From Nitrospirales bacterium (lineage in GTDB: Bacteria > Nitrospirota > Nitrospiria > Nitrospirales > NS-4), in contig DASXSU010000031.1 of assembly GCA_036505795.1 (NCBI GenBank), forward strand, positions 72,471 to 136,470: a stretch of DNA of 64,000 nucleotides. The letters run 5' to 3'. This document shows, piece after piece, positions 19,649-26,230 of this stretch. The notes under the pieces were generated by a model that did no database searches, was not told where the DNA came from, and was given only the letters and a program-made list of their open reading frames with translations. Made by a program: the position numbers and the translations under genes. Positions within the stretch are counted from its first letter, which is position 1; each line of letters starts with the position of its first letter.

Positions 19649-21352
19649 GTGAGCATGTCGCTTGGGATGCTGGTGCCGCTGCTGCCCCTTCTGGCAGTGA
19701 TTATTGTCCTCGTGGGGGAACCCGAGACGCAGTACGTACGGTCGAAGGTAGGCGTTCTGCCTCTGGCCGCGTCGTTCGGTGGTTCCCTCATCACGTTAGT
19801 GCTGGTCGCGTCGGATGGAGCTATTACCATCCGGTTCTATGATCCATCGTTCATCGCCAATGTTGCCCTTCCTTTAGGCTTCCACATCGATCGACTCAGC
19901 GCAGTCATGCTGGTCCTTATCTCGGGCGTTGGGACCATTGTCTACGGCTATTCAGTCAATTACATGTTCCAGGACCGTGGCTATCGCCGTTTCCTCGCCC
20001 TCATCGGGGTCACCACCTTTGTCCTCCTTTGCATGGTATCGAGCATCAACTTGGTGATGCTGTTTGTGTTCTGGCAACTCCTGAGTTACCTGCTCGCGTT
20101 GCTTGCTCACAATCTGTCGCATCCAGCCACGCTACAGGGAGCGTTCCGAACGTTTACGCTCCTACGAGTGGGCGACGTGGCATTTCTCGCGGGGATCATT
20201 CTCGCGTATGCCTTGTACGGAACAATCGAGTTTCAGGAGTTATTCAGCCGGGCCGCCGATACACCGATCACGCTCTCACTCTTTCCTGGAATCGAGATGA
20301 CGGGGAGCACAGCGGTGACGCTCCTTATTTTCATCGGGGCGATGAGCAAGTCGGCACAGTTTCCGCTCCACATTTGGCTTCCGAGTTCGCTCTATGCTCC
20401 GACGCCGGTCCATGCGCTGCTTCATGCCGGAATTATTAATGCCGGAGGATTCTTGATAAACCGACTCGCCCCTTTATACGGATTAAGCCCGCCAACCCTA
20501 CACGTTGCTTTTGTGATCGGCACGCTCACCGCTTTCCTGGGGGCCTCCATGATGCTGACACAAAATGACATCAAAAAAACGCTGGGTTTCTCCACGATCG
20601 GCCAAATGGGCTATATGATCATGGAATGCGGCTTAGGGGCATTCGCTTTAGCAATCTTTCATCTCATTGCGCACGGGCTTTTCAAAGCGACGGTGTTCCT
20701 GAATTGCGGCAATGTCATCCATAAAGCCCGGCAGGAGCCCTTGCTTCCGATGAGGCCGGCGGCCCAAGAGGCGGAGTTTTCAGGTCTCACCTGGACAACC
20801 GGGTTTTTCACAATACTCCTGATGCCACTCATAATTCTGCTCGCGGCCCATGGAGCGTTGCAGATCCCGATCCTCGATTCTCAGGGGTCGGTGATCTTCC
20901 TCTTCTTTATCTGGGTAACCTCTACCCAGGCGATTTTGACACTCACCCGCTTGCGTGGGGTCGCGTCGTGGAAAGTTTCGGGCGCCATGCTCCTCATTCT
21001 GCTTTTCGTGGTGTTCACCTATCTCTTCGCCGCCAAGCGCTTCACAACATTTCTCTACCCGGATCGAGAAGAGGTGGCTGCTTACTTCAGGGCTGCTGCG
21101 CTTCCCGGGCCGGTTTTTGATAGCCTCGTGGTGATCAGCACTGTGCTTATTGTCGCGGGCTGGTTTTACCTCTACTCACGGACGCGTGGCGAGCGGATAC
21201 CATTACCCTCGTGGGTGGAAACAGTCCGCGCTAGCCTGTACCTGTTATTCATGAATCGCCTCTATCTCGATGTGGCGTATTCTAAACTTGGAGCCGCTGT
21301 GATGCGCCTGGCTTACCGCTTAGACCGGAGCTGGCTCGGGAGGGTGCTCTGA
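19649..21352 (+). CDS. dabB: DabB-type NuoL/MrpA-like proton-conducting membrane subunit
   Basis: 567 aa and polytopic. The Proton_antipo_M signatures are [33 protein letters not shown] and [18 protein letters not shown]. It is the first gene of an operon that contains a DUF2309 gene. The start is GTG at 19649 or ATG at 19655. Confidence 0.75.
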   Translation: [567 protein letters not shown]

Positions 21353-21357
21353 CGGCA

Positions 21358-25600: not shown

Positions 25601-25895
25601 TTGGAGCGATCTACGACTCGGCTTGGCCTGGCAGACGGTGATGAACGGAGAGGCGCCCTATCACGAGCCCATGCGACTGTTGACCATTATTGAAGCCCGA
25701 TGTTCGGACATCGAGAAACTAATCAGGCGGCACGAGGTGTTGCAGCATTTCTATCACAACGAGTGGGTGCACCTCGTCGCGCTCGACCCAGAGGACGGAA
25801 CCTTGTATCGGTACAGATCAACGGGGGGGTGGAGCAATGTCGCCGTTGGACCGACACGCATAAATGGAACGAAGGGAAAGGAGTCGGTTGAATGA
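22644..25895 (+). CDS. dabA: DabA (DUF2309) inorganic-carbon pump subunit, long form
   Basis: 1083 aa. The DUF2309-type N-terminus is YWPMRTFIHHNPLHSLEYLPFE. Putative Zn ligands are FCIDVRSE (Cys at 24105, Asp at 24111) and CAHAS...LDCGACGG (His at 24924, Cys at 24969). It is adjacent to a NuoL-like gene. Confidence 0.85.
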   Translation: MDQIKRTGDPDTRRMELRGVVRVAGEVIAQYWPMRTFIHHNPLHSLEYLPFETTVRRGQKFLGGYGYVSGRNFRGYLRSGRILFRHLDEAIQRLAHNQSVTVGPCRIAHQDVLRACMTHGLCATTPEPLDVLLNPGSNEELVFALADHLTAALTAPTIEDRIATDVREDLAELGSYVPLSNWCDRTLGTEIVSLVNTELIKWCEAFLDEGDATWSMPGRDQGLYNAWKALAAQEWSPCSIKDSRRKIGDLPEHPEDAVIESLEILGIPDEHRQDYLSLQLTALPGWAGYIKWRAEQQNYSWQQVYPANLVQFLAVRLWYVRELVQKACHEALDIQGNFRAISGYMQNHPHAYFLRKEQVAGRLPAAYSEQVQRLSRSNSNEWKELSERLEIDTRPQRDLSLRLVAARRLLNLGQALEIVPTALIGANPKDLAKLVSWMDAFPEPEHGPVWLKAFEARYQEQLFRMLMRTAGSHGSSAPVRPQSQAVFCIDVRSEPFRRHLESTGANETYGFAGFFAVFIRHRAWGKEHYTEQFPAIMRARNEVRELPRSYLEHMVPKHTSRTKLVHAGHTLLHDLKENVVTAYVMVESLGWFYGIPIVGKTVTPALYKRLASWVQRRLVPSIATILTVDKLSPADIEEMLVAEQRSTIWKALRDRVGVRASRISAEFVEALRLQALNGEKGAEPSLIGAGRELALSKDDLVAFVETLRRQYRITQRSASWQKERITRTGFTLDEQVLTVETALRMMGLIRNFARVVLFCAHASTSENNPYESALDCGACGGNEGKPNARVLAMMANNPKVRERLTKNGIDIPSDTHFLAGQVDTTTDEVQLFDLEDVLPSHRKDVARLLDDLHEAAQLTSQERCARFPEAKEALPPAQAWTYARERSVDWSQVRPEWGLSGNTSFIIGRRDLTKGLNLGGRVFLHSYDYREDPTNRLLEVIMTGPQVVAQWINMEHYFSTVDNEVYGSGSKIYHNVVGRLGIMSGPWSDLRLGLAWQTVMNGEAPYHEPMRLLTIIEARCSDIEKLIRRHEVLQHFYHNEWVHLVALDPEDGTLYRYRSTGGWSNVAVGPTRINGTKGKESVE

Positions 25896-26230
25896 GTGAG
25901 CTGACGTTGCACCCGATGAAGGAAATCCGTGTGATTGTCGCAGGTGAACACAAGGCTTTTGTGACCGAGTTGCTGGAGGCTCAAGCGACCGGCTACACGG
26001 TTATCGGCAATGTCTCCGGGAAAGGCCATCACGGCGTTCGTGAAGCTCACTTTATGTTCAGTGAGCAGGAGAGCCTCGTGATGATTATGACGGTCGTGCC
26101 CGAAGAGAAGGTCGAACCGATCTTGGCCGGATTGCGGCCGCTGTTCGCCCGTCACTCCGGCGTGATGTTCGTGGCTGATGTGGCGGTCAGCCGACGGGAG
26201 TACTTCGGGAAAAGCTTGACCGGTTCCTGA
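25892..26230 (+). CDS. PII-like signal transduction protein
   Basis: 112 aa. The sequence MKEIRVIVAGEHKAFVTELLEAQATGYTVIGNVSGKGHHG... has the beta-alpha-beta layout and G-x-G loop region of the P-II family. Its ATG overlaps the dabA TGA stop (ATGA). Confidence 0.65.
   Translation: MSELTLHPMKEIRVIVAGEHKAFVTELLEAQATGYTVIGNVSGKGHHGVREAHFMFSEQESLVMIMTVVPEEKVEPILAGLRPLFARHSGVMFVADVAVSRREYFGKSLTGS

Follow-up and report, generated by a model that had tools for sequence, protein, structure and literature searches.

A four-gene locus on the plus strand of a 64,000-nt stretch of contig DASXSU010000031.1 (hereafter, the window), from an uncultured member of the Nitrospiraceae, very probably constitutes a DAB1-type energy-coupled, or 'vectorial', carbonic anhydrase operon with the gene order dabB-dabC-dabA-cpII. 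The locus is an ordinary member of the already characterized DAB1 pump with its PII-like regulator, and its sole unusual feature is a full-size DabC. An initial annotation of this DNA had recognized a DAB-type inorganic-carbon pump locus, and this identification holds: DabB, DabA, the antiporter-like gene and the PII-like gene were correctly named, and the Zn ligands align. Two of its broader statements were mistaken. It treated DAB as a two-gene system, whereas a 2018 preprint had already termed DAB1 'a cluster of 3 genes', in an operon also holding P-II (bioRxiv 10.1101/476713). It also considered the four-component form uncharacterized, whereas the DAB1 DabA/DabB/DabC heterotrimer was solved by cryo-EM at 2.13 Å in 2026, and the operon was cloned both with and without pII, the plasmid table of that study holding a 'T. 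albus Dab1 operon including pII protein' beside a pII-free version (bioRxiv 10.64898/2026.05.01.722082). The DAB2 structure paper likewise assigns a further small membrane-spanning protein, hneap_0908, to the three-subunit DAC.

Organization of the locus

The four genes, called from the open reading frame list and Pfam, are dabB (19649-21352, +; 567 aa, GTG start), the long form of dabC (21358-22656, +; 432 aa), a dabA of DabA1 type (22644-25895, +; 1083 aa) and a CPII-type PII-like gene (25892-26230, +; 112 aa); the assignment of the second gene also draws on a profile comparison and a fold model. Read directly from the sequence, the dabB/dabC junction is TGA-CGGCA-ATG, a 5-nt gap; dabC and dabA overlap by 13 nt, with the ATG at 22644 and the TAA at 22654-22656; and dabA and the PII-like gene share an ATGA at 25892-25895. 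GGAG-type ribosome-binding sites lie 5′ of genes 2, 3 and 4. The start of dabB is ambiguous between GTG 19649 and ATG 19655, the latter being the start in the source annotation. The earlier description of four coupled plus-strand genes was exact in its coordinates and in all three junctions, every peptide signature that it quoted was found in the translations, and the HMM searches that it had proposed matched PF00361, PF10070 and PF00543 on the respective products.

As a reference DAB1 we used plasmid 1 of Nitrobacter hamburgensis X14 (NC_007959.1, Nham_4323 region), which is listed as carrying a DabA1 with DabC (bioRxiv 10.64898/2026.05.01.722082). This plasmid holds two tandem, near-identical dabB-dabC-dabA-PII cassettes (6527-12413 and 13446-19332 of our extracted locus L003), with IS110 transposases upstream, each encoding a DabB of 565 aa, a hypothetical protein of 253 aa (DabC), a DabA of 1037 aa and a P-II protein of 108 aa. 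The gene order is identical to that in the window, and the junctions are closely similar (6-nt gap, 16-nt overlap and 4-nt overlap, versus 5, 13 and 4 nt in the window). The Nitrobacter arrangement differs in being duplicated, in lying beside a LysR regulator and a form I RuBisCO (cbbL) where the window has no RuBisCO, and in having a DabC of 253 aa with 8 transmembrane (TM) helices and no Pfam match.

Catalytic and membrane subunits

DabA matches PF10070 at 879 bits with profile positions 2-747 covered, aligns with DabA2 of PDB 9RD0_A at E=3e-104, and shares 37% identity with Nitrobacter DabA1 over 97% of its length. The residues of the Zn site are all present (C488, D490, R492, H761 and C776), with a 15-residue spacing between H761 and C776 that equals that of H694 and C709 in Thermocrinis albus. 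At 767-781 the protein carries NNPYESALDCGACGG, an exact match to a DabA1 motif that is strictly conserved in 50 DabA1 sequences (bioRxiv 10.64898/2026.05.01.722082). Exact agreement extends to DWSQVRPEWGL at 889-899, which ends in the active-site Leu L899, and the lid motif GFAGFF is found at 510. The initial annotation had staked its reading of the 1083-aa protein on a match to DUF2309 and on the alignment of its Cys/Asp/His/Cys residues; PF10070 was matched, and the ligands align with the DabA Zn site. Its description of a 'long' DabA is right as to length but not as to rarity, as DabA1 spans 1037 aa in Nitrobacter and 1046 aa in Halothiobacillus neapolitanus (bioRxiv 10.1101/476713).

DabB matches PF00361 (E=2.5e-47) and PF00662, shares 41% identity over 498 aa with DabB1 of N. 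hamburgensis, and aligns with DabB2 of PDB 9RD0_B at E=1e-36. The Lys/His pair of TM7 is kept (K234 and H241, within SKSAQFPLH), as are H338, H342 and K346 of TM11. The latter series, H338-x3-H342-x3-K346, corresponds to the HxxxHxxxK of TM11 in T. albus DabB, where these are proton-path residues (bioRxiv 10.64898/2026.05.01.722082). These features identify DabB as a NuoL-like membrane subunit that is predicted to conduct protons.

A CPII-type PII-like protein

The product of gene 4 matches PF00543 at 76 bits and is 48% identical to the P-II protein encoded 3′ of Nitrobacter dabA. Its alignment with PDB 5D4N/5D4L (E=1e-31, 49% identity over 102 aligned positions) connects it to the crystallized CPII, a PII protein that is associated with carboxysomes in Thiomonas intermedia, and none of the NCBIfam GlnB/GlnK models matched it. 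By sequence, then, gene 4 encodes a CPII-type PII-like signaling protein. Wheatley et al. (2016, J Mol Biol) are reported to have found that T. intermedia CPII binds ADP/AMP and that bicarbonate enhances this binding. The two proteins are of the same size and both lie beside a DAB1 operon; they differ in that the T. intermedia protein is carboxysome-associated, whereas gene 4 has no carboxysome association.

Conservation across Nitrospirota

We next considered whether the cassette is conserved as a unit, using the best 80 loci by DabA alignment, all from Nitrospirota species, with local HMM searches and with counts restricted to loci with enough flank; the T. albus and H. neapolitanus loci lie outside these 80. 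Among species-representative genomes, the best 80 DabA matches were all Nitrospirota, at 63-78% identity. A dabB gene was present in 63/63 loci, a long dabC in 78/78 and a P-II gene directly 3′ of dabA in 77/77, and all four genes occurred in order in 61/61. This outcome bears out the earlier expectation that the two additional genes accompany dabAB in related genomes. In Nitrospira moscoviensis and Candidatus Nitrospira bockiana, the same four genes are surrounded by unrelated flanking genes.

Several variations on the cassette were also observed in these loci. In one subclade of Nitrospira (e.g., sp. NFB02 and sp. NS4), a further full-length dabB paralog directly precedes the cassette, giving dabB'-dabB-dabC-dabA-PII (L076 1120-4706, L068 1051-4685, L045 748-4404, L087 991-4706 and ~20 more); the two copies are 70-84% identical to each other, HLIAHGLFK is kept in both, and the duplication is absent from the window. 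In 48 of the 80 Nitrospirota loci (L008-L087), and also in L004 (6584-6955, minus strand), a gene of the MpsC family (PF10057, E=3e-34) is found just 5′ of dabB in divergent orientation, echoing the mpsABC operon of Staphylococcus aureus. No MpsC was found in the 64-kb window (best tblastn E=4.4), where the corresponding site holds genes for an NMT1_3 protein and an alpha/beta hydrolase. In one Nitrospirota metagenome-assembled genome, the DAB1 cassette is directly preceded, on the other strand, by a second and divergent dabB/dabA pair that lacks an intervening dabC (L009 1-2729, minus strand).

A full-length DabC

Gene 2 sits between dabB and dabA, as DabC does in Nitrobacter, and departs from the published description of this subunit. 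The described DabC has ~250 aa and 8 TM helices, is half the size of NuoM and belongs to no Pfam family (bioRxiv 10.64898/2026.05.01.722082), and the 253-aa Nitrobacter protein likewise had no Pfam match. Gene 2, with 432 aa and 14 TM helices, matches PF00361 weakly but above threshold (42 bits, E=8e-11). Because a pairwise BLAST comparison of gene 2 with Nitrobacter DabC was marginal (E=1e-3, nearly uninformative), a profile-profile comparison was needed, and we used hhalign to compare a profile of 28 gene-2 homologs with one of 17 short DabCs. The two profiles aligned with 99.4% probability (E=1.9e-21) over 242 columns, pairing gene-2 residues 161-409 with DabC residues 3-247, and this alignment identifies the long and short forms as homologous. 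Many of the 'short' representatives of the gene-2 cluster are fragments or have mis-called starts, and these were excluded as evidence for a short DabC in Nitrospira.

The AlphaFold model of gene 2 (pLDDT 87.8, pTM 0.89) comprises 14 TM helices, two of them interrupted (156-168/176-184 and 311-325/331-340), and superimposes on NuoM/ND4 in Foldseek with a TMq of 0.84 and a TMt of 0.69-0.78. The Nitrobacter DabC model (pLDDT 92.3) comprises 8 TM helices equivalent to TM7-14, with a TMt of 0.43-0.47 against NuoM/ND4. When the channel residues of NuoM were mapped onto gene 2, K234 fell on A168, K265 on P198, H322 on F252, H348 on V277 and E407 on F336; among the mapped positions only the His of the TM7 break is kept, as H175, which is 93% conserved in the family alignment. 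No conserved charged residue was found mid-membrane in the alignment of the 28 homologs. Modeled in this way, gene 2 is a full-length, channel-dead homolog of NuoM. In the DAB1 structure, DabC aligns with the NuoM helices beside NuoL and is hydrophobic where NuoM has its channel residues, and the subunit is needed in vivo (bioRxiv 10.64898/2026.05.01.722082). A channel-dead gene 2 product fits the structural rather than catalytic role that has been put forward for DabC.

The N-terminal ~160 residues (six helices) of gene 2 align without large gaps across the 28 homologs, down to 26% identity, although this half is less conserved (18-64% identity) than the C-terminal half (30-87%). Because these residues align across the homolog family, the source (JGI) annotation, which begins gene 2 at 21835 (273 aa) and leaves ~480 nt (21358-21834) unannotated, is too short. 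Wherever long-form homologs carry a taxonomic name, they belong to Nitrospirales/Nitrospiraceae or to Nitrospina/Nitrospinaceae, the named Nitrospiraceae including N. moscoviensis (55% identity) and Ca. N. bockiana (60%). We found no published description of a long-form DabC in the literature searched, in which coverage of the key papers was partial.

We also noted that gene-2 homologs are often auto-labeled 'NADH-quinone oxidoreductase subunit M'. In some Nitrospiraceae, Melainabacteria and possibly Chroococcales, a DabC-like region forms the C-terminal part of a DabB-sized protein (P0166/P0279, 871 aa; P0287, 763 aa; P0162, 579 aa, partial), the aligned part corresponding to residues ~150-420 of the window DabC. 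These proteins are putatively like the DabB-DabC fusions of Aquificae, in which DabC is fused to DabB (bioRxiv 10.64898/2026.05.01.722082). Some Nitrospira genomes appear to carry two divergent long-DabC paralogs (sharing ~30% and 53-60% identity with the window DabC), with each pair on one contig (P0183 and P0040 in Ca. N. bockiana, contig of 4,464,302 bp; P0143 and P0104, contig of 200,670 bp), which suggests two DAB1-type loci per genome in some Nitrospira.

The 14-TM DabC of Nitrospirota and Nitrospinota may represent the un-truncated, ancestral DAB1 accessory subunit, or else nitrite oxidizers that use the reductive tricarboxylic acid (rTCA) cycle may have kept the additional half for a role specific to their lineage; we regard this pair of options as plausible, at somewhat less than even odds. 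If DabC is ancestral in this form, DAB1 would have arisen from a NuoL/NuoM-type (or MrpA/MrpD-type) antiporter pair; DabC would have shed its ion path first, and TM1-6 later, in the Proteobacteria and Aquificae.

A bolder proposal, which we consider unlikely, is that the full-length DabC is more than a scaffold, and that TM1-6 serve an additional purpose in the Nitrospira/Nitrospina complex, for instance by providing a hydrophobic passage for CO2 or another route for ions, comparable to NdhD3/NdhF3 of the cyanobacterial NDH-1MS CupA complex. Retention of the entire 14-TM antiporter fold with both interrupted helices, persistence of the N-terminal half in all 78 loci scored and, without large indels, across the family down to 26% identity, and conservation of His175 in the TM7 break would all fit such a function. 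Set against these are the uniformly apolar replacements of the mapped Lys, His and Glu channel residues, the lack of any conserved mid-membrane charge in the family, and the clearly weaker conservation of the N-terminal half. Moreover, the N-terminal helices are evidently dispensable elsewhere, since proteobacterial DAB1 DabCs, such as the 8-TM Nitrobacter protein, lack them.

Weighing the assignment

The reading of the locus as a DAB1-type operon can be set against a very different one, in which genes 1 and 2 are the relic of a cation antiporter pair of Mrp/NDH type and work independently of DabA, gene 4 is an ordinary nitrogen-regulatory PII, and their clustering is coincidental. We consider this highly improbable: although the best NCBIfam matches of genes 1 and 2 are to NuoL/NuoM/Mrp models (all far below cut-offs) and Pfam labels gene 4 as P-II, the four-gene order is constant in every one of the 61 complete loci while the flanks vary, overlapping stop and start codons couple the genes, gene 4 is nearest to CPII and leaves the GlnB/GlnK models unmatched, and neither companion Nuo or Mrp subunits near the locus in the window nor channel residues in gene 2 attest to membership of respiratory complex I or of an Mrp antiporter.

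Four observations nevertheless weigh against the DAB1 assignment. First, the single-operon reading draws on the junctions and on synteny, as no assignable promoter, terminator or RNA element emerged: a scan for sigma-70 promoters and terminators gave nothing above shuffled expectation, an Rfam scan of the window and the 5′ intergenic region gave no match, and two candidates found by eye, TTGACA-17 nt-TAAGAG ~90 nt 5′ of dabB and a poor sigma-54-like TGGCTC-N5-TTTTC, were judged unconvincing. Second, residue 143 of DabB is Gln (FWQLL) where NuoL and NdhF have the conserved Glu of TM5 (WE motif); Nitrobacter DabB1 has Phe at this position. Third, given its size and its Pfam match, the role of this DabC could differ from that of the published subunit. 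Fourth, for any Nitrospira DAB, the activity, the proton coupling and the role of CPII are extrapolated from homologs.

Relation to known systems

The closest counterpart of the locus is the DAB1 of T. albus and H. neapolitanus (the three-subunit DAC), with which it shares the subunit set and the PII gene in the operon. Resemblance extends to the length of DabA1, NNPYESALDCGACGG, DWxxxRPEWGL and the Cys/Asp/Arg/His/Cys site; to a NuoL-like DabB with HxxxHxxxK in TM11; and to a NuoM-derived DabC that is apolar at the channel positions. The difference lies in the window DabC, with its 432 aa, 14 TM helices and score on PF00361. The list of 50 operons in the DAB1 preprint includes no Nitrospirota (bioRxiv 10.64898/2026.05.01.722082), whereas the host of the window is a Nitrospirota nitrite oxidizer.

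DAB2/MpsAB (DabA2B2 of H. neapolitanus, PDB 9RD0; MpsAB of S. aureus) agrees with the locus in catalytic principle and core folds, but has neither a DabC nor a PII gene; DabA2 is only 827 aa long, and the YESA positions of NNPYESALDCGACGG are substituted. A functional analogy can be drawn to the cyanobacterial NDH-1MS/MS' complexes (NdhF3/NdhD3/CupA), which similarly combine a NuoL-like and NuoM-like pair with a soluble Zn protein for vectorial CO2 hydration. CupA is, however, unrelated to DabA, and these complexes are driven by a complete, redox-coupled NDH-1, whose subunits are absent in the window.

Genomic context and carbon fixation

The product of gene 4 recurs with identical sequence on contig Ga0376051_0000014 (83.7 kb) of JGI metagenome 3300036862, evidently the contig from which the window derives. 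The remainder of the window is made up of housekeeping genes, including MutS, PolA, ribonucleotide reductase, nusA-infB-rbfA-truB-rpsO-pnp, a K+/H+ exchanger, a two-component system and HEAT-repeat proteins. No RuBisCO, carboxysome shell, CsoSCA or cbbOQ genes were found in the 64 kb, which sets the locus apart from alpha-carboxysome loci for carbon concentration. Nitrospirota fix carbon via the rTCA cycle. A genome survey from 2026 also treats Aquificota, the phylum of T. albus, as rTCA autotrophs, and reports one or more DAC/DAB in every member of the Nitrospirota that it covered (PMC13147460). Because Nitrospirota are rTCA autotrophs, all of those surveyed having a DAC/DAB, the missing RuBisCO is expected. 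The initial annotation was therefore right that the window holds neither RuBisCO nor a carboxysome, although the carbon-fixing partner that it found puzzling is no mystery in a Nitrospiraceae host that uses the rTCA cycle.

Immediately downstream, on the minus strand at 26251-29699, are genes for a sigma-54-dependent response regulator and a dCache/HAMP histidine kinase, convergent with the cassette, the stop codon of the regulator lying 20 nt from that of the PII-like gene. We considered this two-component system as a possible part of the locus and rejected it, as it is convergent and is absent beside the N. moscoviensis and Ca. N. bockiana cassettes. Elsewhere in the window (46018-49619, minus strand), three consecutive paralogous HEAT/PBS-lyase-repeat proteins (378, 438 and 380 aa) are encoded upstream of polA.

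Discussion

The mechanism that we propose for this pump builds on the sequence features, folds and synteny described above, with the gating and scaffold roles taken from the solved DAB1 and DAB2 homologs. CO2 would diffuse into the cell and reach the buried Zn site of cytoplasmic DabA (C488, H761 and C776, with D490 and R492). By analogy with those homologs, its hydration to bicarbonate would proceed only while protons pass through the NuoL-like DabB and so alter the conformation of DabA; these changes would gate the substrate and product channels of the Zn site, rendering hydration unidirectional and allowing bicarbonate to build up in the cytoplasm against its gradient. DabC, having lost every mapped proton-channel residue, would most likely sit next to DabB as a scaffold, either structural or allosteric. 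CPII probably adjusts pump activity in response to adenine nucleotides and bicarbonate, a role that we purely infer. The accumulated bicarbonate/CO2 pool would presumably feed the rTCA cycle and bicarbonate-dependent carboxylases, with no carboxysome involved.

What is new here is the full-length DabC, a modest point, as the rest of the locus was already known as DAB1 with CPII. Automated annotation truncates the long dabC (to 273 aa in the window) or mislabels its product as 'NuoM'. As a full-length but channel-dead protein, this DabC may represent a naturally occurring intermediate in evolution, and truncating it would directly test the role of the subunit. More broadly, the cassette is universal and invariant over the 80 sampled Nitrospirota species, which supports the view that slow-growing nitrifiers reliant on the rTCA cycle genuinely need to capture CO2 actively.

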